Positions 21,297 through 46,487 of a stretch of DNA of 64,000 nucleotides are shown here, piece by piece. Location: contig JBCCIC010000001.1 in the NCBI GenBank assembly GCA_039028435.1, positions 204,240-268,239 on the forward strand, written 5' to 3'. The first letter of the stretch is position 1; every line of letters begins with the position of its first letter. The DNA comes from Actinomycetota bacterium. GTDB lineage: Bacteria > Actinomycetota > Acidimicrobiia > Acidimicrobiales > UBA10347. The position numbers and the translations under genes were made by a program. The notes under the pieces are model-generated. The model searched no databases. It was not told the origin of the DNA and worked only from the letters and a program-made list of their open reading frames with translations.

Positions 21297-23354
21297 ATGG
21301 TGGAAATCGACAAGCTTCGGGAATCCCTTACTCATCAGCTTGACCAAGCCATCGGCTGGTTCGAGGGATCTGACCGCAATCGCGAAACGACCGATGGTGA
21401 CGCAGCGGAGCAGCTGGCGCTCCTCAAGGCACGCGCAACATCGGTACTCCTGCGAATCGCTCTGCTAGGCGCATTCTCCTCGGGGAAGAGCTTCCTCGCC
21501 AACGGACTTCAGGGCTTCCTGCAGTACAAGGAGATTGAGGATGACGGGGAGATTCAGCCCAAGTTCATCGGGATTCTCCCGTCGCTTCCAGTCAGTACAA
21601 CGGCCGTCCCCACCACGCTTCAACCGGTCCACGAAGGCGCCGCGAAGAAGGACGACGACCTCGACTCCCCTCTCAGAGTGCGACTAATGGGCAACGAACG
21701 CTGGACCGAGGTTGGCGTCTCTTCGCCGGGCCGGATTCGCGCTTACACCACCTCGCACCCGAACTACATCGGTGAGCGAAAGTCGAAGCACGTCGAGCGT
21801 GAGGTTGCCGAGGCCGAGATTGACCTCCACGAGCCTGCGCTTCGCGCGCTCATCTACGACCTCCCGGGAACGAACTCCCCGAATCCCACCCACGACGCGA
21901 TCGTTCGACGGCGAGTGCAAGATGCTGACTGTTTCGTGTATGTCACCATGGCGACGTCAAGTCTTTCCGAATCGGACCTCGAGCTGATCCGATTCATGTT
22001 TGAGCATCACCGCGAGACCTCAAAGCCGGTGATCTGGGTAGTGACCGGAATCGACCTTGCCAACCAGCTCGGCCCCGATGATGAACCCGCGTGGAAGACC
22101 ACACTTGCCGAGAACAACCACTACCTGCGGGAGAACTTTGAGCAGGCTGTGAGCGACGCAAGTGGTACGACGTTCGTTGGTAGTGGCTTTGCAGGAGTCT
22201 CGCCGGCACTGGAGGCGCGAGCGCAGGCTGCGGAGGATCCAGCCCGCTCGGAACGGCTGCTTGCGCGCAGCGGAATGCGCGAACTCCGCTCGCGTATCGA
22301 GGAACTGATTGAAGGCGAGAGTGGGAGAGGGCACCTTCACCGAATCGCTCTGGAGGCGCTCGCCGTAGTCCACGGCCATCATGGTCGCCTGGAAGCCGAG
22401 CTGAACTCCCAGCGCATTCCGCACGAGCAGCTGGAGTCGGAGATCGCTCAGACGAAGTCTGAGATCTCAGCAACCAGGAAGCAAGGAGCGGACCTCCGGG
22501 CGATCCTGGAAGACCATCTGGGAGATGCCATCCGGCGGACCGCAGCACCGTTCGACAAAGGCACCGGGCTCAAAGGTCACCTCAAGACCGAACTCGCCTC
22601 AGTCATCGACACCACGAACTTCCTCAAGGAAGACGAGATCAACCGGTACGAACTCAAGCTGCAAGAGGCGACGAGCGCTTGGCTCAAGCGGAAGGGGAAT
22701 CCCGGCCAGCTGTGGGAGCGGGAGGTTCGCGACTTCCGACGAACCGCGAATCGCGAGCTCAGCGCGCGGGTCGGCGACGCGACGGTCGGCCGCAAGTCGG
22801 CGCGAATCAACCTCAATGACCTGGATCAGCTACTGCAGATTGCCGAGGCCGCTCCCCCCGACCCGCAAACGGCCGAGCGCCTCCTGAAGTTCGCCAAGGA
22901 CGTTTCACCCTATGCCTCGGCAGGGCTAGCGGCAGCTGGGGTAACCACGGCTGTGGCTGCGCCCGTTGCAGCAATGGCTCTGTTGCCAGCAGCGGCGGCG
23001 GTCGGCATCGCAAGCATCTTCACGTTCCGGCGGAATCGCACCGACAAGATCACAGCGCAGGAAGCTCTGCGCCGGGTCGAGCGAGAACGGCTCTCAGATA
23101 TTGCTGAGCATGTCGCCCAATGGTTCATGGCTCAAGCGAGTGCAAACGGATTTGCGATCGTCGATGCGGCAGACGACAGGATGCAGGCACGGATCGCAGA
23201 TCTAGACAGTCATCGCAGGAAGCTCGTTTCGCGCTCGAAGCGCCCTGAACAACGCGAATCCAAAGCACATGTGGACTACCTCGAGGACCGCCACAGCGCC
23301 GGTCAGGACATCATCGATGCCCTTGCCGATATTGCACACGTGACCGAGAGCTAG
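21297..23354 (+). CDS. Dynamin-like GTPase (bacterial DLP), solitary copy
   Basis: 685 aa with G1 GAFSSGKS, G3 DLPG and a G4-like TGID. It has a long helical stalk and a hydrophobic paddle, AGLAAAGVTTAVAAPVAAMALLPAAAAVGIASIF. Eight of the first 20 codons end in A/T, against 0 of 20 for the DLP at 30203. Confidence 0.75.
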   Translation: MVEIDKLRESLTHQLDQAIGWFEGSDRNRETTDGDAAEQLALLKARATSVLLRIALLGAFSSGKSFLANGLQGFLQYKEIEDDGEIQPKFIGILPSLPVSTTAVPTTLQPVHEGAAKKDDDLDSPLRVRLMGNERWTEVGVSSPGRIRAYTTSHPNYIGERKSKHVEREVAEAEIDLHEPALRALIYDLPGTNSPNPTHDAIVRRRVQDADCFVYVTMATSSLSESDLELIRFMFEHHRETSKPVIWVVTGIDLANQLGPDDEPAWKTTLAENNHYLRENFEQAVSDASGTTFVGSGFAGVSPALEARAQAAEDPARSERLLARSGMRELRSRIEELIEGESGRGHLHRIALEALAVVHGHHGRLEAELNSQRIPHEQLESEIAQTKSEISATRKQGADLRAILEDHLGDAIRRTAAPFDKGTGLKGHLKTELASVIDTTNFLKEDEINRYELKLQEATSAWLKRKGNPGQLWEREVRDFRRTANRELSARVGDATVGRKSARINLNDLDQLLQIAEAAPPDPQTAERLLKFAKDVSPYASAGLAAAGVTTAVAAPVAAMALLPAAAAVGIASIFTFRRNRTDKITAQEALRRVERERLSDIAEHVAQWFMAQASANGFAIVDAADDRMQARIADLDSHRRKLVSRSKRPEQRESKAHVDYLEDRHSAGQDIIDALADIAHVTES

Positions 23355-26760: not shown

Positions 26761-26999
26761 AGATCTGGAAGTCGTGGCGCCCCCGAGACGCCACGTGCTT
26801 TGCCTTTGCGATCACCATCATGGCGGCGCCATGTTTCGGGCATGTGAGCGGCGGGTTGCCATCGTGTTCGAGTGTTCCGACACCCGCCGCTCGCCCAGCA
26901 CCACTGCGACCGACGGCACATCCGCTGTGTGAGCTACCCCACACAAGCAGCCGAGCACGGGTGGTAGCTTCGCCTCGCCATGGGTATGGGAGGCAAGAC

Positions 27000-29900
27000 A
27001 TGAGCGATGCAGGTAGCGATGTGGGACCGGACGACTACCGGGGCCAGGACATCGACCCCGAGCAGTTCTCGATCGGGGATCACCTGGTCTATGACCGCGA
27101 GGCAGGCCTTTGGTATGACACCGAGGCTGGCACCCTGCACGAGAGCCGCACGTCGCCGCCGCTCGATCCCGACGACTACGAGGACGGCGTCGCCCTCAGC
27201 GACGACAGCCCGATCCTGGCGTTGTTCGACTTCGTGTTCCATCGAGGGGACGAACGCACCGCCGGCGAGGGAACCGATCCCCACTTCGACCTGGAAACCG
27301 GTCGCCTGGTCGACGCCGACGGCAACCTGCTCGCGGTCACCGAAGAACAGCAGGAGCAGCTCGTCTCCAGTGCCAACCAACAGGTCTTCACCGAACTCGG
27401 CATCGAGTCCGACGGGCACCAGTCAGTCGTCTTCGACCCGATCACCGGAAGATGGTACGACCAAGACGGCGCCCTCCTCGACGACGCGCCCAGCCCGACC
27501 ATTCAGATCGATGACGCCAACGCGTTCGCCGCCGCCAACGCCATTCTCGGCAACCACACCGGAGTGGATGGCGCGGAACAGGACCAGTTCCGCAGCTTCG
27601 GGGAAACCCTCGACTCGTTCGGCGACGCGGCACCCGACGGCCTGGTGTTCGACCTTCGAACCAACGCGTTCCACGCGGCCAACGTCGAGTCCGAGGAGTT
27701 TGAGCAAGCGGTCCAGGACCGTGTCGATGAGATCGGCCACCAGTTCGATGACGCGGAGCAAGCCCGCGAAGCGGCCACGCTCTCGGTGCTCGAAGAGACC
27801 CAGATCGGCGGCGGTTTCGCCAACCTCGAGGGCCATACGGTCAAGATCGAGATCGAAGATCCTCTGAATGACGACGTGCAGGTGCGCGAGGTCGACGTGA
27901 TCTTCAACACCGAGACCGGCGCCTTCTATCAGGAGCTCGGCGGCGAGCGTGTTTCGGAGACCATCCGGTTCACCGCCGGCAGCGAACTCGGCCAGCGCGT
28001 AGAGCAGCTCGGCCTCACCGACGGCACCGCAGACGGCGGCGCACTGACCGGCAACGACGAGTTCCACCTGGATCCTGACACCGGCGTCGCCCGGTTCGGC
28101 GATCAAGTTGCCGGTACGTTCGGCTCGCTCGACGACTCGGACCTGATCCGCCTCGACGCCGGCGGCTCGCTCGACAGTGCGGGGGACGAGGGTCAGGGAA
28201 TCCTCGCCGAGAATGTCCGGTATTTCGACCCCGAAACCGGTCGGGTCCTCGACTACCACGGCAATCCACTCCCGGAAACCGACGCCAACGCCGTCGTCTT
28301 CATCTCGCACGACAAGTTCAACGAACTCTTCCCCGACGCGAACGACGAGCTGGAGAGCCGCGAAGGGTACGTCGTCGACCTCCGCACCGGAGAACTGCGC
28401 CGTGACGAGGTCGAGCTCGCCGACGGCACGACCGTCACCCTGAGCGAGATCAGTACCCGCGACCTCGCGACCGATCCACGGCTGCGCCGTGACGGCGACG
28501 AAGTCGAGGCCGCGATGGAGGCCGCGAACGGCGGTGACGGTGGCCTGCTCGTGACCGATCGTGTCGTGGTCGACGAGTCGGCCGGCGTGGCCTTCAACGC
28601 CACCACCGGTGCGTTCTACGACGCCGAGACCGGCCAACAACTCGACGAACCGGTCGACCTCTCACCCGACAGCGCGATCCTCACCGAGCTCGCCGGTCAG
28701 CCACTACGACGCGCGCTCGACCTCGAAGGTGCTGGCAAACTTCAGATCGACCCGCAGTCACTTTCATTGACGGCGGGCGAAGGCGAGCACCTGCGCCTCG
28801 TGACGTCATTTGGCGACGGCACCGTCGTCACGACCCCTAGCGGCTCCTTCGACGAGGCGAGTGGACAGTTCTTCGACCATCACGGCAACCTCGACAACAA
28901 CCAGGACCGCTATGTCACGGTCGCCGAGCTGCTCGAGCAGGCGGAGCGAGACGGCAACGAGGCCCATGTACTCCAACAGCTCGGGGTCCTGGTCGACGAA
29001 CGCGGTGAACTCGACGTCGACCGGGCGACCTTGCCCGACGGCACCCCGGTGAGCGCCCTGGTGGTCGACCGTGCGTCGTTCGGCAGCGACGACGGCGTGC
29101 AGATCACGACGATCAATCCCGAGGAATGGGGCGTCGAGTACCGCAACTCCCCCGACGGGACCAGAGAGGTGATCTACATCGATCGAGCTACCGGTGAGCA
29201 GTACTCGCCGGATGAGTTCCAGCAGCAGGTCGAAGCGGACCTCATTGGTGAGGAGGCCTCGCCGCAGGACCCCGAGCCCGAGCAGCCGGCCGCCCCGCAA
29301 CCGCCGACGGCGGATGAGCAGCCCGAACCCGAACAACCCGCCGCCGAACAACCGGCACCCGAAACCGAACAACCCGAAACCGAACAACCGGCACCCGAAA
29401 CCGAACAACCAGCCGCCGAACAACCTGCACCCGAAGCCGAACAACCAGCCGCCGAACAACCTGCACCCGAAACCGAACAACCAGCCGCCGAACAACCTGC
29501 ACCCGAAACCGAACAACCCGAAACCGAACAACCAGCCGCCGAACAACCAGCCGCCGAGCCAACCGACTACTTCTCCGACGCCGTGCCCGCTACCGACAGC
29601 GATGGTGGCAGCGCCGGCTACTTCGACGACGGCGGTTCGACCTACTACGGCGAAGACAACAACGAGGGCTACTTCGACGACGGCGGTTCGACCTTCTACG
29701 GCGAAGACAACAACGAGGGCTACTTCGACGACGGCGGTTCGACCTACTTCGGCGAAGACAGCAACGAGGGCTACTTCTCCGACGCCGTGCCAGCTACCGA
29801 CCAAGCTGCCGGGTACGCCCCGGTCCCCGAGGCGCCCGCACCCGCGGCTTCTGCGACCCCGATACCCGAAGCCCCAGCCCCGACCGAGACTCCTGCGGCA

Positions 29901-30206
29901 GCCTCGGCGGCAGCGGAGGAAGCCGCGTTCGGTGCCGGAGCCCAGGCTGCGCCTGCGCCCGCGACCGACTTCGGTACCGGCGCTGATACGACCCAGCCCG
30001 TGCCGGCGGCAACGGTCGTCCACACCGAGACCTCGGGCATCCCGGTCGAGCAGCCCGCACCCGAACCGTTGCCGGTCGAGCCGGTGCCGATGGTCGAGGA
30101 GCCCGCGCTTCCGGTACTCGAAGAGCCCACACCGGTGCCTGACCTCGTCCCCGACGAACCGGTGCCGATGGATGATCCCGGCGACATGGGCGCCGCCGAA
30201 GGGTGA
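27000..30206 (+). CDS. Extremely acidic 1068-aa repeat protein with no signal peptide (first gene of the DLP operon)
   Basis: ATG at 27000 preceded by GGGAGG. There are about 10 copies of a (D/E)xx(T/S)Gxx(Y/F/L)Dxx(G) motif, for example PITGRWYDQDGALL and PETGRVLDYHGNPL. These are followed by (EQPAAEQPAPET)n, three copies of GYFDDGGSTYYGEDNNE, and a P/A/E-rich tail. The stop overlaps the next start (GTGA). Confidence 0.7.
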   Translation: MSDAGSDVGPDDYRGQDIDPEQFSIGDHLVYDREAGLWYDTEAGTLHESRTSPPLDPDDYEDGVALSDDSPILALFDFVFHRGDERTAGEGTDPHFDLETGRLVDADGNLLAVTEEQQEQLVSSANQQVFTELGIESDGHQSVVFDPITGRWYDQDGALLDDAPSPTIQIDDANAFAAANAILGNHTGVDGAEQDQFRSFGETLDSFGDAAPDGLVFDLRTNAFHAANVESEEFEQAVQDRVDEIGHQFDDAEQAREAATLSVLEETQIGGGFANLEGHTVKIEIEDPLNDDVQVREVDVIFNTETGAFYQELGGERVSETIRFTAGSELGQRVEQLGLTDGTADGGALTGNDEFHLDPDTGVARFGDQVAGTFGSLDDSDLIRLDAGGSLDSAGDEGQGILAENVRYFDPETGRVLDYHGNPLPETDANAVVFISHDKFNELFPDANDELESREGYVVDLRTGELRRDEVELADGTTVTLSEISTRDLATDPRLRRDGDEVEAAMEAANGGDGGLLVTDRVVVDESAGVAFNATTGAFYDAETGQQLDEPVDLSPDSAILTELAGQPLRRALDLEGAGKLQIDPQSLSLTAGEGEHLRLVTSFGDGTVVTTPSGSFDEASGQFFDHHGNLDNNQDRYVTVAELLEQAERDGNEAHVLQQLGVLVDERGELDVDRATLPDGTPVSALVVDRASFGSDDGVQITTINPEEWGVEYRNSPDGTREVIYIDRATGEQYSPDEFQQQVEADLIGEEASPQDPEPEQPAAPQPPTADEQPEPEQPAAEQPAPETEQPETEQPAPETEQPAAEQPAPEAEQPAAEQPAPETEQPAAEQPAPETEQPETEQPAAEQPAAEPTDYFSDAVPATDSDGGSAGYFDDGGSTYYGEDNNEGYFDDGGSTFYGEDNNEGYFDDGGSTYFGEDSNEGYFSDAVPATDQAAGYAPVPEAPAPAASATPIPEAPAPTETPAAASAAAEEAAFGAGAQAAPAPATDFGTGADTTQPVPAATVVHTETSGIPVEQPAPEPLPVEPVPMVEEPALPVLEEPTPVPDLVPDEPVPMDDPGDMGAAEG
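29616..29768 (+). repeat. Three copies of a 51-bp in-frame tandem repeat (GYFDDGGST(Y/F)(Y/F)GED(N/S)NE) inside the acidic protein gene
   Basis: Copies start at 29616, 29667 and 29718. An adjacent 36-bp ETEQPAAEQPAP array lies at about 29397-29505. Confidence 0.85.
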
Positions 30207-32065
30207 CGGACCAGGCCGCCGTCGACGCGTTCCGCGAGCGCGTCGTCTCCCTGCTCGACACCGGGCGGGCGGCCTGTCGCGGCTACGACCGCGAGGACCT
30301 GATCGCTGGCCTCGACGACGTCAACACCTCGGTCCTCGATCCGGCCACTCGGGTAGTGATCTGTGGCGAGTTCAAAAAGGCCAAGAGCTCGCTGGTCAAC
30401 TCGCTGCTCAAGACCGAGATCTGTCCCGTCGACGACGACATCGCCACCGCGGTGCCGACCAGCGTGGCGCGCGGCGAGACGCGGTTCGAAGCGGTCAGCC
30501 TCCCGAGCGGCGCGGCGTCGGAAGGCGCGGCCGGCGACGAGCCGATGCGCCGAGAGCTCCAGGGGCCGCATGTGCGCAGCGCGATCCTCGATCCGTTCTC
30601 ACTCGACCCACCGGCCGACCTGATCGAGGCAACGCTGCCGAGTGGCCTCCCGGACCTCGTGCTGATCGACACCCCCGGAACCGGCGGCCTCGGATCGGTG
30701 CAAGCGAAGGCCACGCTGGCGACGCTCCCCACGGCGCAGTCCGCGGTCTTCGTCAGCGACGCGTCGCAGGAGTACACCGAAGCGGAGCTGTCGTTCCTGC
30801 AGCGCTGCATCGAGCTGTGCCCCCAGGTGATCTGCGTGATGACGAAGATCGACCTCCACCCGCACTGGCGCACGATCCTTCAAGCCAACACCGAACACCT
30901 GGCCTCACTGGGCATCGAACTGGCGATCATGCCGGTGTCGTCACTCCTGTTCGGTGAAGGCCACCGCCACAAACTCAGCTCGATGATCGAGGAGTCGGGC
31001 ATACCGGCGTTGCTCACCCGGCTCGGGCGCGAGGTCGCCGCCGTCGAAGCTCGGCGGGTCTTTCGCGAGGCCCTCGAGGAGCTGCACCGGGTACTGCAAC
31101 TTCTGCGGGCCCCGTTCGACGCCGAGCGCACCGCGCTCACCGACCCGACGGATCGCGATCGCGCCCTTGCGGAGCTCGAAGCGGCCCAGGAACACGCGGC
31201 CTCGCTCCGGTCGGCCACGGCTCGCTGGCAGGTCATGCTCAACGATGGTGTGAGCGACCTCATGTCCGACGTCGACCACGACTTCCGCAACCGCATGCGC
31301 GACATCGGCGCCGAAGCGAACGCCGTGATCGACGAGGGAGCGCCGCTCGAGATCTGGTCCGAGTTCGCGCCCTGGTTCGAACAGCGGGTGGCCGACGAGA
31401 TCCTGCTCAACTTCGAACTGCTCTCCCAACGCGCCGAAGCCCTCAACGCCGAGGTCGGAGCGCTGTTCGCCGACGAAGGCGGAACCGTCACCGCGGAACT
31501 CGGCGTGTTCGACCCCACGCTCGCCATGGCGCGGGTCAGCGATCTGGACAATCCCGAGTTCTCGACTTCGTCGCGGTTCTCGAACACCATCGCCGGTTTG
31601 CGCGGCGGCCACTCCGGCATGTTCATGTTCCAGACGATCTCGGGCCTGGCGCTCGGTGCCGCGGCGATCACACCGGTCGGCGCGCCGATCGCGGCCGTGA
31701 CCGCGGTCGTTGCGCTCATCAGCGGGCGCAGCGCCGTCAAACAGGGCGCCGAACGCGAAGTCGCACAGCACCGAACGGCGGCCAAGGCTGCAATCCGTTC
31801 CTACACCGACGAGGTCACCTTCCGGATGGGCAAGGAGTTGCAGGCCACCATGCGAGCCGCCCAACGGATGATCCGCGACCACTACACCGTCCGGGCCGAG
31901 GAGCTCCACACCACCGGTGCACGGGCCATCGAGGCCGCCACCGCCGCGGCTCGATCCGCCGACCCCGCCGCAAACGCCGCCCGCGTCGCCGACATCGACG
32001 CCGAGCTCGGTCGTATCGGCGCTGCCGAAGTCGCAATCGCCACGCTCGACGAAGAGCTGCGATGA
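30203..32065 (+). CDS. Dynamin-like GTPase, IniA-like by size and position, with a degenerate Walker A
   Basis: 620 aa with G1 GEFKKAKS (Ala where GK[ST] normally has Gly), G3 DTPG and G4 TKID. Hydrophobic paddle: FMFQTISGLALGAAAITPVGAPIAAVTAVVALISG. The GTG start overlaps the upstream stop. Confidence 0.75.
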   Translation: MTDQAAVDAFRERVVSLLDTGRAACRGYDREDLIAGLDDVNTSVLDPATRVVICGEFKKAKSSLVNSLLKTEICPVDDDIATAVPTSVARGETRFEAVSLPSGAASEGAAGDEPMRRELQGPHVRSAILDPFSLDPPADLIEATLPSGLPDLVLIDTPGTGGLGSVQAKATLATLPTAQSAVFVSDASQEYTEAELSFLQRCIELCPQVICVMTKIDLHPHWRTILQANTEHLASLGIELAIMPVSSLLFGEGHRHKLSSMIEESGIPALLTRLGREVAAVEARRVFREALEELHRVLQLLRAPFDAERTALTDPTDRDRALAELEAAQEHAASLRSATARWQVMLNDGVSDLMSDVDHDFRNRMRDIGAEANAVIDEGAPLEIWSEFAPWFEQRVADEILLNFELLSQRAEALNAEVGALFADEGGTVTAELGVFDPTLAMARVSDLDNPEFSTSSRFSNTIAGLRGGHSGMFMFQTISGLALGAAAITPVGAPIAAVTAVVALISGRSAVKQGAEREVAQHRTAAKAAIRSYTDEVTFRMGKELQATMRAAQRMIRDHYTVRAEELHTTGARAIEAATAAARSADPAANAARVADIDAELGRIGAAEVAIATLDEELR

Positions 32066-32072
32066 GGCGGCG

Positions 32073-33563
32073 ATGAGCCTGATCGACGAGACCCGTTCGG
32101 TGTTGACCGAGGCGCGCGACGCCCTCGCCGGCTCCCCGGCCGGGACCGAGATCGAGGTGTTGCTCGACCGACTCAACGGGCCACTTCGCGTGGCGATCGC
32201 CGGCCGCGTCAAGGCCGGCAAGTCGACCTTGCTCAACGCGTTGGTCGGGAGCCACCTGGCGCCTACCGACGCACGGGAGTGCACCCGGATCGTCACCTGG
32301 TATCGCAATGGCCAGACGTACGGCGCCACCGCACTGTTGCGAACCGGCGCGTCGGAATCGTTGGCGTTCGAGTTCGCCGACGACGAGTTCGCCGTCTCGC
32401 TCGGCGATCTGGCGATCGATGACATCCACGCCCTGCATGTGTTCTGGCCGTCGCGCGAACTCGAGGCGACCACCCTCATCGACACGCCGGGGGTCGGGTC
32501 GATGACCCCCGACGCCGCCGCCCGATCCCACGAGTTCCTCGGCGGCGGAGGCCAGGAAGCCGAGGCCGACGCGGTGCTGTACCTGATGAAGCACCTTCAC
32601 GGCACCGACCTCGACCTGCTGAGCGCATTCCACGACGAAGAGGTCTCGCACCCCAACCCCGTCAACGCGATCGGTGTGCTGTCGCGCGCCGACGAGGTCG
32701 GCTCGGGCCGCGCCGACGCCATGGACTCCGCGGCAACCGTCGCCGCCCGCATCGCCAACGAACCGCCGGTCCGACGACTCGTGTCGACGGTCGTGCCCGT
32801 CTGTGGACTCCTCGCCGAGACGGCGGCCACGCTGCGGGAGAGGGAGTACCGCCTGCTCGCCGCGGTAGCCGCGCTTCCGACCGACGAGCGTCGGATCGGG
32901 CTGCTGTCCGCCGACCGTTTCCGAACCCTCGACGGTGTGCCCGGCCTCGAACCCGCCGACCGGGAGTCGCTGCTCGGCCGCTTCGCCATGTTCGGTCTGC
33001 GCGCCTCGATCGCGGCGATCGGGGGTGGCGCCGCGCCCAGTTCGACCGACCTCGCACGCCTGTTGACCAGACTCAGCGGTATCGAGAACGTCCGTCGACT
33101 ACTCGACACCGTCTTCGCCGAACGCGGCGACGTACTCAAGGCCCGATCGGCACTCGTGTCGCTCGGCGCCGCCCTCGATCGGGCGGGCAATCATCCAGCG
33201 GTCGCCGACCTCGAGCGGCGGCTCGAACAGGTGCTTGCGTCGGCCCACGAGATCGCCGAGCTGCGAGCCCTTGGCACGCTCCGGCTGGACGCCGTGCCCG
33301 CCGAGGGCGACATCCTCGCCGAGGCCGAACGGCTCGTCGGCGGAAGCGGCCGCGCGCCGGCGCGACGTCTGGGCATGCTTGACACCTCGCAGCACGACCA
33401 GCTCCTGGCCGAAGCCCAGCGCAAACTCGGCGAATGGCAGCGCCGGGCCGAGCACCCGCTCAGCGGAGCCGACCTGGTATCACTGTGTCGCGTGGTGATC
33501 CGTTCCTGCGAAGGCATGATTTCCTCGCTGCTCTCCGAGCCAGCATCACCGACGACCTTCTGA
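32073..33563 (+). CDS. Dynamin-like GTPase, IniC-like by size and position
   Basis: 496 aa with G1 GRVKAGKS, G3 DTPG and a G4-like SRAD. The ATG lies 7 nt after the upstream stop. The 5' part of ORF 31917.. overlaps the previous gene and I discarded it. Confidence 0.75.
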   Translation: MSLIDETRSVLTEARDALAGSPAGTEIEVLLDRLNGPLRVAIAGRVKAGKSTLLNALVGSHLAPTDARECTRIVTWYRNGQTYGATALLRTGASESLAFEFADDEFAVSLGDLAIDDIHALHVFWPSRELEATTLIDTPGVGSMTPDAAARSHEFLGGGGQEAEADAVLYLMKHLHGTDLDLLSAFHDEEVSHPNPVNAIGVLSRADEVGSGRADAMDSAATVAARIANEPPVRRLVSTVVPVCGLLAETAATLREREYRLLAAVAALPTDERRIGLLSADRFRTLDGVPGLEPADRESLLGRFAMFGLRASIAAIGGGAAPSSTDLARLLTRLSGIENVRRLLDTVFAERGDVLKARSALVSLGAALDRAGNHPAVADLERRLEQVLASAHEIAELRALGTLRLDAVPAEGDILAEAERLVGGSGRAPARRLGMLDTSQHDQLLAEAQRKLGEWQRRAEHPLSGADLVSLCRVVIRSCEGMISSLLSEPASPTTF

Positions 33564-33573
33564 CAAGGCAGCT

Positions 33574-35340
33574 GTGTCCTACACCCTCGGCATCGACCTC
33601 GGCACGACCTACACCGCCGCTGCGGTCGTGCGCGATGGGCGTGCAGTGACCATCCCGCTCGGTAATCACGGCGCATCGATTCCGTCGGTGGTGTTCGTGC
33701 AAGAGGACGGCAACGTCCTGATCGGCGAGGCGGCGGTTCGCCGGGGCAGCACGGCTCCCGAGCGGATGGCCCGCGAGTTCAAGCGCCGTATCGGTGACAC
33801 CCAGCCGCTGTTCATCGGTGGCGCGCCGTATTCGCCGGAGCAGCTTGCCGCGCGCCTGCTTCGGGCAGTCTTCGACGAGGTGACCAACCGCAACGGCTCG
33901 CCGCCTGACCGCATCGCGGTGACCCATCCGGCGAACTGGGGTGGCTACAAGACCGACCTGCTTCGCCAGGCCATCCAGATGGCCGACATTCGGGTGCCGT
34001 TCGACCTGATCACCGAGCCCGAAGCCGCCGCGGTGTTCTACGCCGAGCAGGACGCCCAGTTGGCGCCCGGCGAGACGATCGCAATCTACGACCTCGGCGG
34101 GGGCACCTTCGACGCCGCAGTGCTGGCTGCAGGACCGAATGGATTCCAGGTGCTGGGTGAGCCGTCGGGCATCGAGCGCTTCGGCGGCATCGATCTTGAC
34201 GCGGCGGTCTTCCATCACGTGATGGGTTCGCTCGATCCGTCGGTAGCCGAGCTGTCGGCGACCGACGAGGCCGCCACGATCGCGCTCCAGCGCCTGCGCG
34301 AGGAATGCACGATGGCGCGCGAGCTCCTGTCGGCCGACACGAGCGTCACGATTCCGGTACTTCTGCCGGGAGCGAACACGAGCGTTCGACTCACCCGCGG
34401 CGAGCTCGAGTCGATGGCCCGGCCGGGCCTCGAGGAGACGGTGCGAGCGCTGGAGCGGACGCTGGCTTCGGCCTCGCTCACTGCCGATCGATTGCGGGCA
34501 GTGGTTCTGATCGGTGGCACGTCGCGCATGCCCTTGGCGACCCAGCTCTTGAGTGCGTCGCTGCAGCGACCGATCGAGCTGACGTCGGATCCCTCCCACG
34601 CCGTCTCCCTCGGTGCGGCACTCGCTGCGTCGCGAGGCCAGACCGGGGCCTCGGCGCCACCGGCCGCTGCGGCGCCACCGGCCCCACCTGCGCCTGCTGC
34701 CCCACCGGCTCCGGCCGCGGACCTGTCGCATCTGCCTCCTCCTCCACCGGCCCCAGCACCGCAACCCGCCGTCGTGGCAGACCTGCCGCCGCCTCCTGCG
34801 CAACCAGCGCCTCCGGTCACTCCGGCTGCTCCGCCCGCCCCGGCAGCACCGGCCGCGCAGATGCCGATCGCGGCACCACCGACCCCGGAGAACCTGCCAC
34901 CGCCGCCGGGCAGTCGGCAATCGCTTCCTCCACAACCAGCGCCCGCGCCACATCCCGACGCCCCGGCGCCCGACGGCACGACCCGCATCTCGATCCCACC
35001 TCCGGTCGCGCAACACCCGGCACCGACGCCTCCGTCGCAGCCGGCACCTCCGCCGCAGCCGGCGCCCGCACCCGACCCCGACGCCGAAGCGCCCCAGGGC
35101 ACGACCCGCATGTCGATCCCGCCCCCGGTCGCACCCCACCCCGACGCCGAAGCGCCCCAGGGCACGACCCGCATGTCGATCCCGCCCCCGGTCGCACCGC
35201 CAGCCACACCGCCGGCGAGCCCGGCGCAGTCGGCGCCGCAGGTCAAACCGCTGAACCCCGACCCGAAGCTTCGGGAGAGCGAGCCGACCATGCTGGTCCG
35301 CCTACCGCTGCCCGACGACGAGGACGACGAAACGCCTTAG
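33574..35340 (+). CDS. Hsp70-family ATPase with the nucleotide-binding domain only, plus a ~235-aa proline-rich tail
   Basis: GIDLGTTYTAAAV, IYDLGGGTFDAAVL, VVLIGGTSRMPL and DPSHAVSLGAALAA form a complete actin-fold NBD. No beta-sandwich substrate-binding domain follows. Instead the tail is P/A-rich, with three PDA.AP.GTTR(M/I)SIPPPVA motifs and an acidic end DDEDDETP. Confidence 0.75.
   Translation: MSYTLGIDLGTTYTAAAVVRDGRAVTIPLGNHGASIPSVVFVQEDGNVLIGEAAVRRGSTAPERMAREFKRRIGDTQPLFIGGAPYSPEQLAARLLRAVFDEVTNRNGSPPDRIAVTHPANWGGYKTDLLRQAIQMADIRVPFDLITEPEAAAVFYAEQDAQLAPGETIAIYDLGGGTFDAAVLAAGPNGFQVLGEPSGIERFGGIDLDAAVFHHVMGSLDPSVAELSATDEAATIALQRLREECTMARELLSADTSVTIPVLLPGANTSVRLTRGELESMARPGLEETVRALERTLASASLTADRLRAVVLIGGTSRMPLATQLLSASLQRPIELTSDPSHAVSLGAALAASRGQTGASAPPAAAAPPAPPAPAAPPAPAADLSHLPPPPPAPAPQPAVVADLPPPPAQPAPPVTPAAPPAPAAPAAQMPIAAPPTPENLPPPPGSRQSLPPQPAPAPHPDAPAPDGTTRISIPPPVAQHPAPTPPSQPAPPPQPAPAPDPDAEAPQGTTRMSIPPPVAPHPDAEAPQGTTRMSIPPPVAPPATPPASPAQSAPQVKPLNPDPKLRESEPTMLVRLPLPDDEDDETP
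35076..35201 (+). repeat. Two copies of a 63-bp in-frame tandem duplication in the Hsp70-like tail
   Basis: Copies start at 35076 and 35139 and their first 58 nt are identical. A degenerate third copy lies at about 34951-35010. Confidence 0.85.
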
Positions 35341-36740
35341 CCCGGACTGCGCCGCGCTTCCAACGCCTCGGTCGCGACCACCCGATCGTCGAACGGCGTC
35401 GATTCACCGGCCTGAGTCAGCGTGCGCTCGTGACCCTTCCCGAGTAGCAACACGACGTCACCTGCTTCGGCCACCTCGATCGCCCGCGTGATGGCGAGGC
35501 GACGGTCGGGCTCCTCGACGACTTCGGCGGAACCAACCTCGACGCCACGCGCGACCTCGGAGGTGATCCGCGCCGGGTCCTCGCTACGAGGATTGTCCGA
35601 GGTGACGTAGACGAGGTCCGCGTCGGACGCAGCTGCGCCCATATCCGTCCGCTTCGTTCGATCGCGATCGCCGCCCGCACCGACGACGACGATCACCCGT
35701 CCCCCGGCGGTAGCTCGTCCCGCTCGCACCGCGGCACCTATCCCCTGGGGTGTGTGGGCGAAGTCGACGTAGACCGTCGGCTCATCCTTCCCGGTGGGTA
35801 CCCGTTCGAGCCGCCCGGGCGGCATGATCGCGGACGCCAGGCCGGCGACGATGTCTTCGGTCCTCACACCAAGCACCCGCGCGCAGGCGGCCGCAACGAG
35901 CGCGTTCGACACGTTGTGCCTGCCCGTGACCGGAAGTTCGATCGAGGTGGCGGCTGCCCTGAGACCAAGACCGATGGCCGAGAACCGGCATCGGTCGCCG
36001 TGGAGTTCGATATCGGTGGCTCGCAGATCGGCGTCGCCATCCGGGTCGCACGAGACAGTCGTGCGACCGTCGTGGTCCAGCCGCTCGGCAAGGCGTCTTC
36101 CCCAAGATCCGTCGACCACCACCACGCCGTGTTCCGACCGCTCGTCGAACAAGGTCGCCTTGGTCTCGAAGTAGTTCTCCATCGATCCGTGCACATCGAG
36201 ATGCTCGTGCGCCAGGTTGGTGAAGGCGGTGACGGCGAAACGGCACGCGTCGGCGTGATGGCCGTGCAGCGAGGTCGACGTGACCTCGATCGACAGGGCA
36301 TCGACATCGAGGTCCACGAGCTCGCCGAGCAATCGATGCAGGTCGGCGGCCATCGCCGCGCCGGCTTGGTCGACCGTCAGCGGACGTCCGTCAAGGCGGA
36401 CGCCGATCGTGCCGGCGACCGCCGACCGGCGACCGGCAGCACGGAGGATCGAGTCGACCAACCATGTGACCGTGGTCTTGCCATCGGTGCCGGTGACGCC
36501 GACGACATCGATCGACTCCGAGGGGTCGCCGTGCACGTGAGCCGCCAGCTTCGGGACACGAAGCGCCATGTCGGTGAAGACCAGCTGCGGCAACGGCATC
36601 CGCTCCATGGGAACCGTCGTTGCGATCGCACCGGCGCCGCGTCGAACCGCCAACTGGAACTGGTGCTCGAACGACATGTCGCCACGCCGCCGCGGCACGA
36701 ACAGGTCGCCCGGCCGCACGAACTCGGCATTGACCTGCAC
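35337..36740 (-). CDS. murE: Mur ligase, MurE-like (UDP-MurNAc-tripeptide synthetase family), outside any visible dcw cluster
   Basis: VRPGDLFV, GVTGTDGKTT, the Mur ligase middle domain and a C-terminal LLLGKGHE...PFDD. Homology-like sequence continues upstream of the GTG at 36740 without an ATG, GTG or TTG. The stop overlaps the convergent Hsp70-like stop (TTAG). Confidence 0.7.
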   Translation of the reverse strand: MQVNAEFVRPGDLFVPRRRGDMSFEHQFQLAVRRGAGAIATTVPMERMPLPQLVFTDMALRVPKLAAHVHGDPSESIDVVGVTGTDGKTTVTWLVDSILRAAGRRSAVAGTIGVRLDGRPLTVDQAGAAMAADLHRLLGELVDLDVDALSIEVTSTSLHGHHADACRFAVTAFTNLAHEHLDVHGSMENYFETKATLFDERSEHGVVVVDGSWGRRLAERLDHDGRTTVSCDPDGDADLRATDIELHGDRCRFSAIGLGLRAAATSIELPVTGRHNVSNALVAAACARVLGVRTEDIVAGLASAIMPPGRLERVPTGKDEPTVYVDFAHTPQGIGAAVRAGRATAGGRVIVVVGAGGDRDRTKRTDMGAAASDADLVYVTSDNPRSEDPARITSEVARGVEVGSAEVVEEPDRRLAITRAIEVAEAGDVVLLLGKGHERTLTQAGESTPFDDRVVATEALEARRSPG

Positions 36741-36859
36741 ATCGCGGATGAATCGACGTCGGGCCTCGTCGCGGTCGATCCCCGAGAGTTCGCCTCGGCA
36801 AACCGCGGCCAGCCCAGCCAGCGTGGCACCCCGCGAGCGAGGTGGGTGGTCCGGCTTCG

Positions 36860-37714
36860 TCAGAGCAGGCCTGCGGTGAAGTTGCTCATGTCCTCGGCCA
36901 GGTTCTCGCTGCGGAAGAACAAGAACGCCGGTACGAACATGCGGTCCACGCCCATCGACTCGAGCTCCTCGACTGCGGCCCGCGGGTCCGAAGTCAGCTG
37001 CGCGGCACCCGCGGTGACCTCGATGTCGGCCGCATCGCGACCCTCGTCGGCCGCGGTCTGGCGCATGATGTCGATCAACTCGGCCAGATCGCCTGTGCCG
37101 GGGAAGAAGCCGTCGCCGATCCGACCGGCCCGCTTGGCCGCCGCGGCGGAGTGTCCGCCGACATGGATCGGCACGGTGGTGCCATGCGGCTTGGGGTTCG
37201 ACGACACGCCGTCGTAGTGGACGAACTCGCCGTCGTAGGAAACGTCATCGTGTGCCCAGAGCGCCCGCATGACGTCCATGTACTCATCGGTGCGCTTGCC
37301 GCGACGCTCCCACGGAATGCCGAGGGCGTCGAACTCCTCGCGCAGCCACCCGACGCCGATGCCGAGCATCACGCGACCCTCGGTCAACGCGTCGACGGTG
37401 GCGACTTCCTTGGCCAACACGGCCGGGTTGCGTTGCGGGAGGATGAGGATCCCGGTGCCGAGCTTGAGCTCACTCGTGGTCGCACCGATGAACGACAGCC
37501 ACGCCATCGGATCGGGGATCGGGCTGTCACCGCTTCCGGGCATCTTGCCGGTGGGCGAATACGGATACGTCGACTCATAGCCCTCGGGATAGAGCACGTG
37601 CTCGACCGTCCACACCGACTCGAAGCCCGCCGCCTCGGCCGCCGGTCCGAGCGCCCGTGCCCCCGGTCCGGACGCGAACGGTCCCGTATTGGCGAATCCC
37701 AACGCAAGTTTCAT
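36860..37714 (-). CDS. Luciferase-like monooxygenase (LLM) family oxidoreductase, probably F420-dependent
   Basis: MKLALGFANTGPF...ESVWTVEHV...GTGILILPQRNPAVLAKEVATVDALTEGRVMLGIGVGW. I chose the internal ATG because the upstream ORF part is Arg-rich. Confidence 0.75.
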   Translation of the reverse strand: MKLALGFANTGPFASGPGARALGPAAEAAGFESVWTVEHVLYPEGYESTYPYSPTGKMPGSGDSPIPDPMAWLSFIGATTSELKLGTGILILPQRNPAVLAKEVATVDALTEGRVMLGIGVGWLREEFDALGIPWERRGKRTDEYMDVMRALWAHDDVSYDGEFVHYDGVSSNPKPHGTTVPIHVGGHSAAAAKRAGRIGDGFFPGTGDLAELIDIMRQTAADEGRDAADIEVTAGAAQLTSDPRAAVEELESMGVDRMFVPAFLFFRSENLAEDMSNFTAGLL

Positions 37715-37758
37715 GCCGGTGACGCTAGTGCGTCGCCACGCAGCACGAGGCCGTCGGG

Positions 37759-38055
37759 CTACGCGCAGTTGAAGCGGAGGCCCAGGCTGTTCGGGTTTTG
37801 GCCCGCGGGACCGAACACCGTCAGACGATCGACGTTGGCGTTCAAACCAGGGATCAGGTTCCGATGGCGTTGTTGAGCCCCGGGTTGATGGGCAAGCCAC
37901 CAGCGCTGTACGAGCAACAGCCATTCGCCGACACGCCGGACACGCCGGCATTGCTCCCGCAGCCCTCGGACGCTACCCGCGCTGAACCGACGGCCGGTAG
38001 CCGAGCTATGCGACGTGAGCCCCATCGCCTGACCGATCGTCACGGCCAGTTTCAT
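37759..38055 (-). pseudogene. Possible frameshifted paralogue of the small secreted protein at 38102..38584
   Basis: The C-terminus ...LTVFGPAGQNPNSLGLRFNCA resembles ...GGTTVFKFTCT of the neighbour. The middle reads sensibly only in another frame (VASEGCGSNAGVSGVSANGCCSYSAGGLPINPGLNNAIG), so at least two frame changes are needed. Confidence 0.3.
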
Positions 38056-38101: not shown

Positions 38102-38584
38102 TCAGGTGCAGGTGAACTTGAAAACCGTCGTGCCGCCCGGATTCTGCAGGAGCCTCACCGCGGAACAGCCGACGAACCCGGGAACCGCCTTGGGCAGACT
38201 GTAGTTGATGCCCTGATCAGCGCCGCCATTGCGGCAGACGAGTGACGCAGCACCGCCGTCAGCGGCATTCCAGGCAACATCGCCGCCGCCGTTGAGCGTG
38301 GGGGTTATGGCTGCGATGATCGGTGAGCTCGCCCCGCCGGTGTTCGCACTGATCTGAATGTTGCCGGCACCGCCGTTGAACGCGGCGCTGAATGTTCCGG
38401 TCCCCATGACAGAAACCGACGCGTTGAACGGTCCACCGCTGCCAGCCGCGGCGTAGTTCGGACGTAGCGACAGGCCCTCGATCTTGGGGGCAGACCACAC
38501 CACACCGGCGATGGCGGCACCCGCGGCCGTCTTCTTGATCATGTCCCGGCGATTCACCGTCTCCGGCTCATCCACGTGCGTCAT
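38102..38584 (-). CDS. Small Tat-exported Gly/Asn/Ala-rich protein
   Basis: Twin-arginine signal NRRDMIKKTAAGAAIAGVVWSAP. The mature part is about 125 aa with no recognised family. Confidence 0.6.
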   Translation of the reverse strand: MTHVDEPETVNRRDMIKKTAAGAAIAGVVWSAPKIEGLSLRPNYAAAGSGGPFNASVSVMGTGTFSAAFNGGAGNIQISANTGGASSPIIAAITPTLNGGGDVAWNAADGGAASLVCRNGGADQGINYSLPKAVPGFVGCSAVRLLQNPGGTTVFKFTCT

Positions 38585-38786
38585 CAGCCCAACTCCCTCA
38601 GCGCTCCCGCAGCCCAGAAACCCTACCAGCTTTGAGACTCGGGGTCGACACCCGAATGGTCACCGGAACCATCGGCCCAGAAGCCCCGGTTCGCTGTCCA
38701 ACCCGAGCCACTGCCAACGCCATCGCACCTGTCCTCCCTGCGAGAACGCGACTACGTTCGTGCGTCGACCCGACCGAGGAGTGCCC

Positions 38787-40295
38787 GTGTACACCCTGCG
38801 CGATCCGCTGAAGCGAGCCGAAGCCCTCTTCCCCGACCGCACTGCGGTCGTGTGCGAGGACACGCGGCGCAGCTATGTCGAACTCGCCGGCCGCATTCGT
38901 CAGGTCGCCGGACTGCTCGAGTCCATGACCGAACCGGGCGATCGGGTGGCGCTGTGGGCGGCCAACAGCGATCGCTATCTTGAGCTGTTCATCGGCGTCC
39001 CCTGCGCGAACCGGGCGATCGTGCCCCACAACACCCGATGGGCCGAACCCGAGCTCGTGTACGCCACCGAAGACGCGGGCGCCAAGATCCTGATCTGCGA
39101 TCGCGACCCGGGCGGGCTGGCGAACAGTGTCGAGCGCGTGATCCGTCTCGACACCGGCGAATACGACGCCCTGCTCGCCGAAGCGCCCGAGGCCGAACCG
39201 ACCATTGCGCCGGACACGTTGGCCGGGCTCTTCTACACCGGCGGCACGACCGGCGCGTCGAAGGGCGTCATGCTCACCCATCAGAATCTGATGGCCAACG
39301 CCGTGCACACCCAGCTCGCCCAGCCGATGCTGGAGGACGACGTCTACCTCACCATGGCGCCCATGTTCCATGCCGCGGGCATCTACTGCGCCATGTCACT
39401 GATGTGGGTGGGCGGCATCAACGTGATCCTGCCTGCATTCGTGCCGGGCAACGTCCTCGACGTGATCGAGGGACACCGCATCACGTGCGCGATCGCCGTG
39501 CCGTCGATGTTGGCGGCGATGATCGAGGCGCAACGGCCGAGCCCGCGCGACGTCTCTTCGCTTCGCTGGATCTCCCACGGCGCCTCGCCCATTGCGCTCG
39601 AAACGCTCAAGTCGGCCGACGAGCTGTTCGGCTGCGAGCTCATCCACTTGTATGGCGCAACCGAGCTCTCGCCGCTCGCGACCATCTTCCGCCACGAGGA
39701 CCGGTTCCTCGGAGACCCGAAGCGTGCCAAGTCGTGCGGCACCGCTCCCCCGGGCGTGAACCTCGAGATCCGTGACAAGGACGGTGCACGCTTGCCGGCG
39801 GGCCAGCCCGGCGAGGTCACGGTGCAGGGACCCAACGTCATGCTCGGCTACTGGAACAAGCCCGAGCAGACCGCCGACGTGCTCACCGATGACGGCTGGT
39901 ACTCGACGGGCGACGTCGGCTACCTCGACGACGAGGGCTACCTCTATCTGGTCGACCGCAGCAAGGACATGATCGTGTCCGGCGGCGAGAACGTGTATTG
40001 CACCGAGGTCGAAGACGCGATCTATACGCACCCCGGGGTGCTCGAGGCCACGGTCTTCGGCATCCCCGACGAGCAATGGGGCGAGGCCGTGCACGCTGTG
40101 GTGGTGCCGCGCGAGGGCGTGGAGATCGACGAAGCGACCGTGATCGAGCATTGCCGCACCCAGATCGGCGGTTACAAGGTGCCCAAGTCGGTGAGCTTTC
40201 AGAGCGACGAGCTGCCCAAGTCCGGCCCGGGCAAGGTCCTCAAGCGCGACCTGCGCGCACCCTTCTGGGAAGGCAAGGAACGCCAGATCAACTAG
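38787..40295 (+). CDS. AMP-dependent acyl-CoA synthetase/ligase (FadD-like)
   Basis: LFYTGGTTGASKGVMLTH (AMP-binding box), YGATE, TGDVGYLDDEGYLYLVDRSKD and KVPK. GTG start after GAGGAG. The 5' 101 codons of the ORF track entry were discarded. Confidence 0.85.
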   Translation: MYTLRDPLKRAEALFPDRTAVVCEDTRRSYVELAGRIRQVAGLLESMTEPGDRVALWAANSDRYLELFIGVPCANRAIVPHNTRWAEPELVYATEDAGAKILICDRDPGGLANSVERVIRLDTGEYDALLAEAPEAEPTIAPDTLAGLFYTGGTTGASKGVMLTHQNLMANAVHTQLAQPMLEDDVYLTMAPMFHAAGIYCAMSLMWVGGINVILPAFVPGNVLDVIEGHRITCAIAVPSMLAAMIEAQRPSPRDVSSLRWISHGASPIALETLKSADELFGCELIHLYGATELSPLATIFRHEDRFLGDPKRAKSCGTAPPGVNLEIRDKDGARLPAGQPGEVTVQGPNVMLGYWNKPEQTADVLTDDGWYSTGDVGYLDDEGYLYLVDRSKDMIVSGGENVYCTEVEDAIYTHPGVLEATVFGIPDEQWGEAVHAVVVPREGVEIDEATVIEHCRTQIGGYKVPKSVSFQSDELPKSGPGKVLKRDLRAPFWEGKERQIN

Positions 40296-40297
40296 CC

Positions 40298-40383
40298 GGG
40301 GTCAGACTGGTTCAGACTTTCGGGGTCAGACCCCTTCAAGGTTGACCCCTTCAAGGTTGGGGTCGGACTGGTTCAGACTTGCC
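40298..40383. repeat. Composite intergenic repeat block (units a-b-b'-a') containing the palindrome GGGGTCAGACCCC
   Basis: a = GGGGTCAGACTGGTTCAGACTT (40298-40319, repeated at 40359-40380 with 1 mismatch). b = GGGGTCAGACCCCTTCAAGGTT (40322-40343). The block starts 2 nt after the FadD stop. Inverted copies lie at 43593-43661. Confidence 0.85.
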
Positions 40384-40421
40384 GATATCGAACCAGGTTT
40401 GATGTCACGACAGGAGGGCCC

Positions 40422-43600: not shown

Positions 43601-43661
43601 AGGGGTCTGACCCCAAAGTCTGAACCAGTCTGACCCCCACCTTGAAGGGGTCTGACCCCCC
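43593..43661. repeat. Inverted copy of the 40298-40383 repeat family (rc-b, rc-a, rc-b)
   Basis: AACCCTGAAGGGGTCTGACCCC / AAAGTCTGAACCAGTCTGACCCCC / ACCTTGAAGGGGTCTGACCCCCC. The reverse complement matches the a+b units on the left almost base for base. Confidence 0.85.
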
Positions 43662-43749
43662 GCTGGGCGGTCGCGGCTCGGTCCTTACGAAGTGGACAAC
43701 TGTCGGACGCCGACGGGACCTGCCTGCGGTGCTGTCGTAGGGTCGTGCC

Positions 43750-44397: not shown

Positions 44398-44422
44398 TCC
44401 GACCGTCGCCGGTCGAACCGCG

Positions 44423-45752: not shown

Positions 45753-45793
45753 GCTGCGAGGCTAGGGGTCGCGTCGAGGCGCATACTGAAGCC

Positions 45794-46483: not shown

Positions 46484-46487
46484 CGCA

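Follow-up and report, generated by a model that had tools for sequence, protein, structure and literature searches.

Introduction

The iniBAC locus of mycobacteria (Rv0341-Rv0343), a classic marker of envelope stress and drug tolerance whose dynamins drive vesicle release, encodes an acidic or low-complexity protein, IniB, followed by two dynamin-like proteins (DLPs), IniA and IniC. Studies of the mycobacterial homologues have shown that IniA binds membranes and carries out GTP-dependent fission, that vesicle release requires both IniA and IniC, which interact physically, and that the locus is induced by cell-envelope damage (PMC6715688, PMC10240201, PMC5760070). The size of iniB varies widely, being 3000 bp in Mycobacterium marinum (PMC5760070). 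Here we describe a cluster of four genes, g1-g4, at positions 27000-35340 of a 64,000-nucleotide stretch (the window) of contig JBCCIC010000001.1 (positions 204,240 to 268,239) from the metagenome-assembled genome of an Actinomycetota bacterium of the Acidimicrobiales. The cluster follows the iniBAC order with an Hsp70-like gene added and, judged from its sequence, is very probably an ini-type locus.

Adjacent DLP genes, one of them with a membrane paddle, are also found in Campylobacter (DLP1/DLP2), Streptomyces (DynA/DynB) and enterotoxigenic Escherichia coli (LeoABC/Eleos), and heterotypic assembly is expected for paired bacterial DLPs (PMC6104087). Unlike the cluster in the window, these pairs have been described without an Hsp70-like or IniB-type partner. 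We found no study of Hsp70 proteins with IniA/IniC, DynA/DynB or bacterial dynamins; the sole mention is one sentence by Boot et al. (2017), which, for the ini locus of M. smegmatis, mentions a dnaK-like gene located downstream of iniR (PMC5760070). The initial annotation of the window had stated that a truncated Hsp70 ATPase has no described role in DLP systems and, in keeping with this, no function was found in the literature. The cluster is thus presented as a variant of a known locus and not as a new system, and the role of its Hsp70-like partner is undescribed. The main interest lies beyond this single window, in a phylum-wide, essentially unstudied Hsp70-like partner and in the pattern of IniB* proteins and FGxG motifs described below.

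Layout of the cluster and its dynamin pair

The four co-directional open reading frames (ORFs) proposed in the initial annotation were confirmed in their coordinates and their tight junctions (Table 1). The GTG start of g2 overlaps the TGA stop of g1 as GTGA (4 nt, 30203-30206), and gaps of 7 and 10 nt separate g2 from g3 and g3 from g4, respectively. All four ORFs have the GC3-rich codon pattern of real genes, and NCBI lists three of the encoded proteins (MEM7091564-66). No terminator-like site was found on the plus strand inside the cluster; a scan for sigma-70-like promoters also returned none, which is uninformative because the host is a high-GC actinobacterium.

Both g2 and g3 belong to the dynamin family, as had been proposed: Dynamin_N (Pfam) matched g2 at E = 1.8e-13 and g3 at E = 2.9e-10, and g3 also matched MMR_HSR1. 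The G motifs first read from the sequence were all present, GEFKKAKS, DTPG and TKID in g2, where they are invariant in an alignment of IniA-like proteins (A1), and GRVKAGKS, DTPG and SRAD in g3. The crystal structure of M. smegmatis IniA (PDB 6J72) was matched by g2 at E = 1.4e-87, with residues 14-600 of the query on residues 4-580 of the chain. When M. vanbaalenii IniA was used as query, g2 was the best match in the window (35% identity over 563 aa), and M. vanbaalenii IniC selected g3 (40% identity over 473 aa, E = 1.6e-81) in preference to g2 (E = 1.8e-12 only). Because g2 matches IniA over its full length and Mycolicibacterium IniA and IniC pick out g2 and g3, the earlier proposal of an IniAC-type pair in an iniBAC-like layout was correct, and g2 and g3 are orthologue-grade relatives of IniA and IniC. 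The similarity of g3 to CjDLP and BDLP was marginal (E = 1e-5 to 1e-6). The hydrophobic paddle that had been suggested for g2 was recovered as a hydropathy peak of 2.1 at aa 488-506 (Kyte-Doolittle, 19-residue mean), in a segment that aligns with the IniA region holding the lipid-binding loop, residues 480-492 (PMC6715688).

A third DLP gene, already noted upstream in the initial annotation, is real (21297-23354, plus strand; Dynamin_N, E = 3.2e-11). It encodes a solitary protein of 685 aa, most of which is covered by weak PADLOC matches to LeoBC and LeoA, and is set apart from the ini-type cluster by opposite-strand acyl-CoA dehydrogenase and SDR genes.

Table 1. Coordinates of the g1-g4 cluster and its parts in the window, with the paired Hsp70-like genes of three mycobacterial loci.
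Feature	Position	Strand	Description
Shine-Dalgarno-like GGGAGG	26988..26993	+	6 nt before the g1 ATG; read from the sequence
g1	27000..30206	+	1068 aa, ATG start; very acidic, in the iniB position
g1 N-terminal 750 aa	27000..29249	+	about 7 copies of a hairpin-like [FV][DN]xxTGxx[YFL]D motif, helices between
g1 Pro/Glu-rich tandem repeat	29317..29557	+	EQPAPETEQPAA units; TRF period 36/72, 86-91% matches
g1 repeat, GYFDDGGSTYYGEDNNE	29616..29784	+	51 nt x 3.3 copies; TRF 94% matches
g1 C-terminal tail	29928..30203	+	two FGxG motifs (AFGAGA, DFGTGA); acidic end ...DEPVPMDDPGDMGAAEG
g2	30203..32065	+	620 aa, GTG start; IniA-type dynamin-like GTPase
g2 predicted membrane-binding (paddle) segment	31610..31732	+	aa ~470-510, hydrophobic; hydropathy and IniA alignment
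g3	32073..33563	+	496 aa; IniC-type dynamin-like GTPase
g4	33574..35340	+	588 aa; Hsp70-type nucleotide-binding domain and Pro-rich tail
g4 nucleotide-binding domain, Hsp70 type	33574..34632	+	aa 1-353; all catalytic motifs intact
g4 tail	34633..35340	+	aa 354-588, 235 aa, 36% Pro; three GTTR(I/M)SIPPPVA units
murE-type ligase	35337..36740	-	convergent, overlaps the end of g4; NCBIfam TIGR01085, 381 bits; boundary, not a component
Hsp70-like gene pair, L168	6071-7912, 13400-15193		
Hsp70-like gene pair, L169	5986-7773, 14050-15945		
Hsp70-like gene pair, L170	6022-7809, 14358-16208		

An Hsp70-type ATPase without a substrate-binding domain

The fourth gene encodes an Hsp70-type nucleotide-binding domain (NBD). 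The Pfam HSP70 profile matched g4 at E = 3.5e-49, over profile positions 105-372 of 599 only, which is the NBD part, and DnaK NBD structures were matched at E = 1e-39 by residues 1-351 of the query. In a motif comparison with E. coli DnaK, for which the reference sequence was entered by hand, g4 retained the equivalents of D8, K70, E171, D194 and D201, and its non-mycobacterial relatives likewise keep every DnaK catalytic motif. No interdomain linker, beta-sandwich substrate-binding domain (SBD) or helical lid follows the NBD; a Pro-rich repeat tail, which carries a 63-nt tandem repeat, stands there instead, and an SBD was found in none of g4 and its relatives. The earlier description of g4 as NBD-only therefore held for the complete NBD and the missing SBD, but not for the end of the protein, where the tail of 235 aa follows. 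Scores of g4 were below the NCBIfam cut-offs for both HscA (163.5 vs 708 bits) and DnaK (158.7 vs 648 bits).

The family to which g4 belongs is unnamed outside mycobacteria, where its ini-linked members are annotated 'Hsp70 family protein'. Its common plan, seen in 86 of 108 database homologues and in 42 of 42 complete ini-linked ORFs, comprises the NBD, a Pro-rich linker, a single transmembrane (TM) helix some 90 residues beyond the NBD, and an outside part of roughly 160 residues. These ini-linked relatives, 50-75% identical in the NBD, resemble g4 in lacking an SBD, in the Pro-rich linker and in their adjacency to iniA-iniC. They differ in the TM helix and extracytoplasmic part, as the tail of g4 is soluble and g4 is the only member seen without the helix that all 42 complete ini-linked homologues possess; its hydropathy maximum is 1.2 and is located in the NBD. 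A frameshift masking a TM helix in g4 was considered and rejected, as neither of the other frames encodes one. With its catalytic residues intact and no membrane anchor, g4 would suit biochemistry.

The outer part of the family varies between lineages, being a BON domain in an Ilumatobacter locus, FGE-sulfatase-like in Nitriliruptorales, a domain containing Cys in Micromonosporaceae, or a segment rich in Ser, Thr and Pro. These lineage-variable parts suggest different envelope inputs to one cytoplasmic NBD. Outer domains can be seen at L037 (12424-14691), at L053 (3917-7267) and at the C-termini of P0085 and P0096; the Cys-containing domain is about 130 aa long and belongs to no family.

Hsp70-like genes accompany ini loci across Actinomycetota

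Using alignment A1, we retrieved 80 loci from species-representative genomes, spanning Acidimicrobiia, Pseudonocardiaceae, Micromonosporaceae, Jiangellaceae, Kineosporiaceae, Nitriliruptorales and Egibacteraceae. An IniC (g3) homologue was encoded immediately downstream of the IniA homologue in 80 of 80 loci (tblastn). A homologue of the g4 NBD, with 50-59% identity, was present in 46 of the 80. Among the 43 loci that were fully flanked (at least 5 kb upstream and at least 4 kb downstream, with Hsp70-like genes counted within 10 kb), 29 contained an Hsp70-like gene, 17 of them downstream on the same strand and 12 upstream and divergent. Several gene orders were seen, downstream and co-directional, upstream and divergent, or directly coupled to iniC, and the same layout was present in the annotated genomes of Salinispora tropica and Actinoplanes. 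Hsp70-like genes commonly accompany ini loci in at least three classes of Actinomycetota. The initial annotation had seen the DLP pair as recruited into a larger module with an extra partner; the pair stood, but the companion proved to be widespread (29 of 43 fully flanked loci) and not an addition of this window.

In the window and at loci L007, L053, L075 and L084, the Hsp70-like gene follows iniC after 10-57 nt, implying co-translation or co-transcription. Conservation of the quartet itself was found in the nearest relative, L007, a 14.7-kb metagenomic contig in which the order matches that of the window: an acidic ORF, iniA (4-nt overlap), iniC, the Hsp70-like gene and a convergent murE. 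A reverse survey, for which metagenomes were scanned with the N-terminal NBD half that is specific to this family, recovered a DLP pair at 6 of 9 Hsp70-like loci with both flanks and at 10 of 23 with one long flank.

Some neighbours of individual Hsp70-like genes were recorded in addition. At L005 (8400-11401), a DLP-unlinked paralogue is carried by the Jiangellaceae metagenome-assembled genome DASUTB01, in which L081 is the ini-linked copy; upstream of the paralogue are two unnamed genes of 186 and 289 aa, the latter overlapping its start by 4 nt, and these may be alternative partners of the same NBD family. GerE/LuxR-type regulators adjoin the Hsp70-like gene in Salinispora (L001, 11902-14286) and Actinoplanes (L003, 12326-13360) and recall IniR beside the mycobacterial copy; the window has no such regulator.

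Hsp70-like genes in mycobacterial ini loci

In M. vanbaalenii, M. fortuitum and an M. smegmatis-type contig the order was iniR (minus strand), Hsp70-like (minus), iniB* (plus), iniB-like (plus), iniA, iniC and a further Hsp70-like gene (plus). The window resembles these loci in having an Hsp70-NBD gene straight after iniC on the same strand, the second mycobacterial copy lying by iniB*. Both mycobacterial genes exceeded the Pfam HSP70 threshold when scanned, although the precomputed annotation leaves five of the six without a Pfam family. The encoded proteins have a TM helix, a Thr/Pro-rich tail and 31-33% identity to g4. Unlike g4, in which the catalytic residues are intact and a TM helix is lacking, these 'dnaK-like' copies are without D8, K70, E171 and D201 (D8 being changed to S, K70 to V or E and E171 to D).

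The cluster also departs from the mycobacterial locus, with its iniBAC genes, iniB* (Rv0340) and IniR, in that the window has no iniB* or IniR homologue, that the Hsp70-like gene is joined into the operon, and that all four genes appear to be translationally coupled, judged by their spacing. Two N-terminal-domain hidden Markov models (HMMs) of our own found no IniB or IniB* homologue in any frame of the 64-kb window.

Two small genes lie between iniA and iniC on the minus strand in M. fortuitum (L169, 11865-12454) and in the M. smegmatis-type contig (L170, 11895-12639), where the pair is annotated DUF3618 and Phage_holin_3_6; both are absent in M. vanbaalenii.

IniB and IniB* proteins of related loci

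The acidic proteins of the retrieved loci were missed by ORF clustering owing to low-complexity masking, and were recovered via position and composition. Since the available Pfam release gave no IniB-like match, NCBIfam NF038175 (IniB_NTERM) and our own HMMs were used instead; the precomputed annotation gives PF27122 (IniB) for mycobacterial proteins. In nearly every locus an ORF of 250-640 aa with an isoelectric point (pI) of about 4.1 and G/D/N-rich repeats was located directly upstream of iniA. NF038175 matched that of L054 above the cut-off (48 bits) and the other six tested below it (E = 1.7e-9 to 8e-4), and we regard these upstream acidic ORFs as true IniB homologues.

Most loci contained a further, unnamed ORF on the opposite strand between iniC and the Hsp70-like gene, whose product begins with a conserved domain of about 75 aa and continues into a tail rich in Asp and Glu. 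An HMM of this domain matched 55 of 87 loci. We identify the ORF as the iniB* of Boot et al. because NCBIfam ties its domain to IniB_NTERM and to the Rv0340 family. Hsp70-like genes and the small IniB*-type genes were arranged head-to-head in 38 of the 40 loci that have both, at a median distance of 168 nt and on either side of iniAC, which points to shared regulation; g4 is not arranged in this way. The common module is therefore described as IniB, IniA, IniC and IniB*, with the Hsp70-like gene in two thirds of loci.

A short FGxG motif recurs in the acidic tails of these proteins. Each of 15 IniB* proteins has it once, and 13 of 15 IniB homologues have it, which greatly exceeds the expectation from shuffled sequences; its use as an IniB-type mark was defined in the present analysis and follows no published criterion.

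The acidic protein in the iniB position

Gene g1 occupies the iniB slot: it lies directly upstream of the iniA-type gene on the same strand, overlaps it by 4 nt and encodes a low-complexity product. The earlier description of a 1068-aa, very acidic and repeat-rich protein was borne out by a pI of 4.05, an Asp plus Glu content of 22% and the repeats detected by TRF. GC contents at the three codon positions (0.75/0.45/0.79) were similar to those of the neighbouring cluster genes, so g1 looks like real coding sequence. No family model in Pfam, NCBIfam or PADLOC was matched, apart from one weak, sub-threshold OCRE match. A HMMER search with aa 1-750 against 1.84 billion (1.84e9) representative proteins returned only g1 itself, and tblastn against 160 related loci gave no match; g1 was therefore treated as an orphan. 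A single-sequence AF2 model of aa 1-750 contained only scattered hairpins (pLDDT 42, pTM 0.25) and was of too poor a quality for a fold search.

The C-terminal third of g1 is of low complexity, consisting of a PE-rich repeat, three GYFDDGGSTYYGEDNNE units and a Pro/Ala-rich tail. This C-terminus resembles the partial upstream ORF of L007 and no other, and the YFGDPGS repeat of that ORF resembles the 51-nt repeat of g1. The tail holds two FGxG motifs against 0.007 expected from shuffled sequence, and the acidic end (…PVPMDDPGDMGAAEG) recalls the C-termini of IniB homologues from L027, L037 and L086.

Proposed role of the cluster and alternative explanations

We consider the cluster to be probably a lineage-specific form of the actinobacterial ini locus that operates broadly as follows. 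By analogy, g2, with its paddle, and g3 would form a heteromeric GTPase machine at the cytoplasmic membrane, and the acidic, disordered, FGxG-bearing IniB-type proteins, g1 included, would be its cofactors or cargo. The Hsp70-type NBD might then be an ATP-switched adaptor or regulator that links envelope state with the assembly or turnover of the DLP/IniB complex, a step that we put forward tentatively. This assignment is proposed because the family has no substrate clamp, a membrane tether, a variable outer domain and apparent co-regulation with IniB*; a protein without a clamp, normally held by a one-helix tether and bearing a variable outside domain, would not be a classical chaperone. In the window, two states would be derived, with the adaptor turned soluble and a giant acidic protein in place of the one with an IniB N-terminal domain. 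In eukaryotes and plastids, Hsp70s are known to work on membrane-remodelling polymers, Hsc70 and auxilin with clathrin and dynamin and HSP70B with VIPP1, and these systems use a substrate-binding domain and J-proteins. As g4 has no SBD and no J-protein or GrpE neighbour, the analogy would be functional at most.

A stronger version, which we regard as possible but doubtful, is that the clampless Hsp70-type ATPase, which usually spans the membrane and bears a variable outer sensor domain, would be an ancient core partner of IniA/IniC and of acidic, FGxG-bearing IniB-type proteins in all Actinomycetota, directly controlling where and when the dynamins assemble. If true, there would be a prokaryotic Hsp70-dynamin partnership overlooked by a literature centred on M. 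tuberculosis, because that species would have lost the Hsp70-like gene; the H37Rv map presumably agrees with this absence. The window would then present this ATPase as a soluble protein with its catalytic residues intact, fused into one operon with a new giant acidic cofactor. The conserved Hsp70-type ATPase and the two kinds of IniB-domain protein sharing FGxG are candidate missing regulators, and Hsp70-like ini genes occur in the tractable M. smegmatis. For annotation, thousands of entries named 'Hsp70 family protein' or 'hypothetical protein' beside dynamin pairs become readable as parts of ini-type modules.

Several observations weigh against this interpretation. The IniB N-terminal domain (NCBIfam NF038175, Pfam PF27122) was not found in the first 200 aa of g1 even at E <= 1, and kinship of g1 with IniB is suggested by position, composition and short motifs; we therefore name g1 an IniB-slot protein with IniB-like tail motifs and not a member of the IniB family. 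No IniR-type regulator is encoded in the 64-kb window, so regulation may differ. A single g1-g4 transcript is what we infer from spacing, and it is gene neighbourhood that would tie the Hsp70-like protein to the dynamins. An Hsp70-like gene was absent within 10 kb from 14 of the 43 fully flanked ini loci, and paralogues occur away from DLPs at L005 and several metagenome loci. The degenerate ATPase motifs of the mycobacterial copies mean that ATP turnover is not essential everywhere, and the wording of Boot et al. implies that the Hsp70-like gene is absent in M. tuberculosis, M. bovis and M. marinum (PMC5760070).

The loci without an Hsp70-like gene and the paralogues, which lie beside unrelated genes, would be explained if the gene were a frequent neighbour only, for example an independent envelope sensor or chaperone-like protein. 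In favour of this reading, the gene forms a separate transcription unit, divergent from IniB*, in most loci. We judge the reading quite unlikely, as the adjacency outlasts rearrangements from Acidimicrobiia to Mycolicibacterium, the 10-57 nt gaps recur in the window and four other loci, and the head-to-head pairing with IniB* holds in all but two of 40 loci. A role in division or septation, in which the DLPs would stabilise FtsZ rings as Streptomyces DynA/DynB do and the Hsp70-like protein would be an actin- or FtsA-like scaffold of the divisome, is likewise unlikely. DynAB is an actinobacterial DLP pair acting in division (bioRxiv 10.1101/2025.06.23.661029, PMC8748795), the Joint Genome Institute (JGI) label for relatives of g4 is 'actin-like ATPase involved in cell morphogenesis', g4 has weak FtsA and MreB profile matches, and a murE-type ligase adjoins the cluster. 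Nevertheless, g4 scores far higher with Hsp70 (168 bits) than with MreB (46 bits) or FtsA, murE stands here outside any dcw cluster and was rejected as a sign of one, and the relatives come with IniB-type proteins, the defining feature of ini loci. In the comparisons made, which were with IniA and IniC, the orthology of g2 and g3 is moreover strong.

Anti-phage defence of the dynamin type (Eleos/LeoABC or B. subtilis DynA-like), with the DLPs sealing or remodelling the membrane during infection and the Hsp70-like and acidic proteins sensing, appears highly unlikely. In its favour, defence loci often contain acidic repeat proteins and variable sensor domains. PADLOC returned weak matches, for g2 to LeoBC over 259-568 (E = 5.6e-11) and for g3 to LeoA over 35-78 (E = 1.9e-9), but these span only parts of the profiles, IniA and IniC are by far better matches than the Leo proteins, and g1 and g4 match no PADLOC defence model. 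Paired or fused bacterial DLPs can shield cells from phage (PMC12998192). The same neighbours recur across three classes, and the chromosomal context is the same in the nearest relative, which speaks for vertical, core-like inheritance; no integrase, transposase or other defence gene was seen near the cluster.

Neighbouring genes and other features of the window

The convergent murE-type gene that bounds the cluster likewise ends it in L007. In the window this lone ligase is followed by a luciferase-like monooxygenase gene (35337-37951 together, minus strand), and the same murE and luciferase-like pair is placed after the ini-type cluster of L007 (5564-7969); the mycobacterial ini loci L168, L169 and L170 likewise have a luciferase-like gene within a few kb. 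Further along the minus strand, six predicted ORFs of 160-390 aa belong to no Pfam family (38102-38584, 38598-39371, 39396-40151, 40326-41282, 43588-44769 and 45749-46651). Upstream of the cluster, positions 16756-21024 (minus strand) encode a protein of 1422 aa that is probably secreted or exposed at the cell surface; it combines right-handed beta-helix repeats with a choice-of-anchor Q domain and a segment resembling dockerin.

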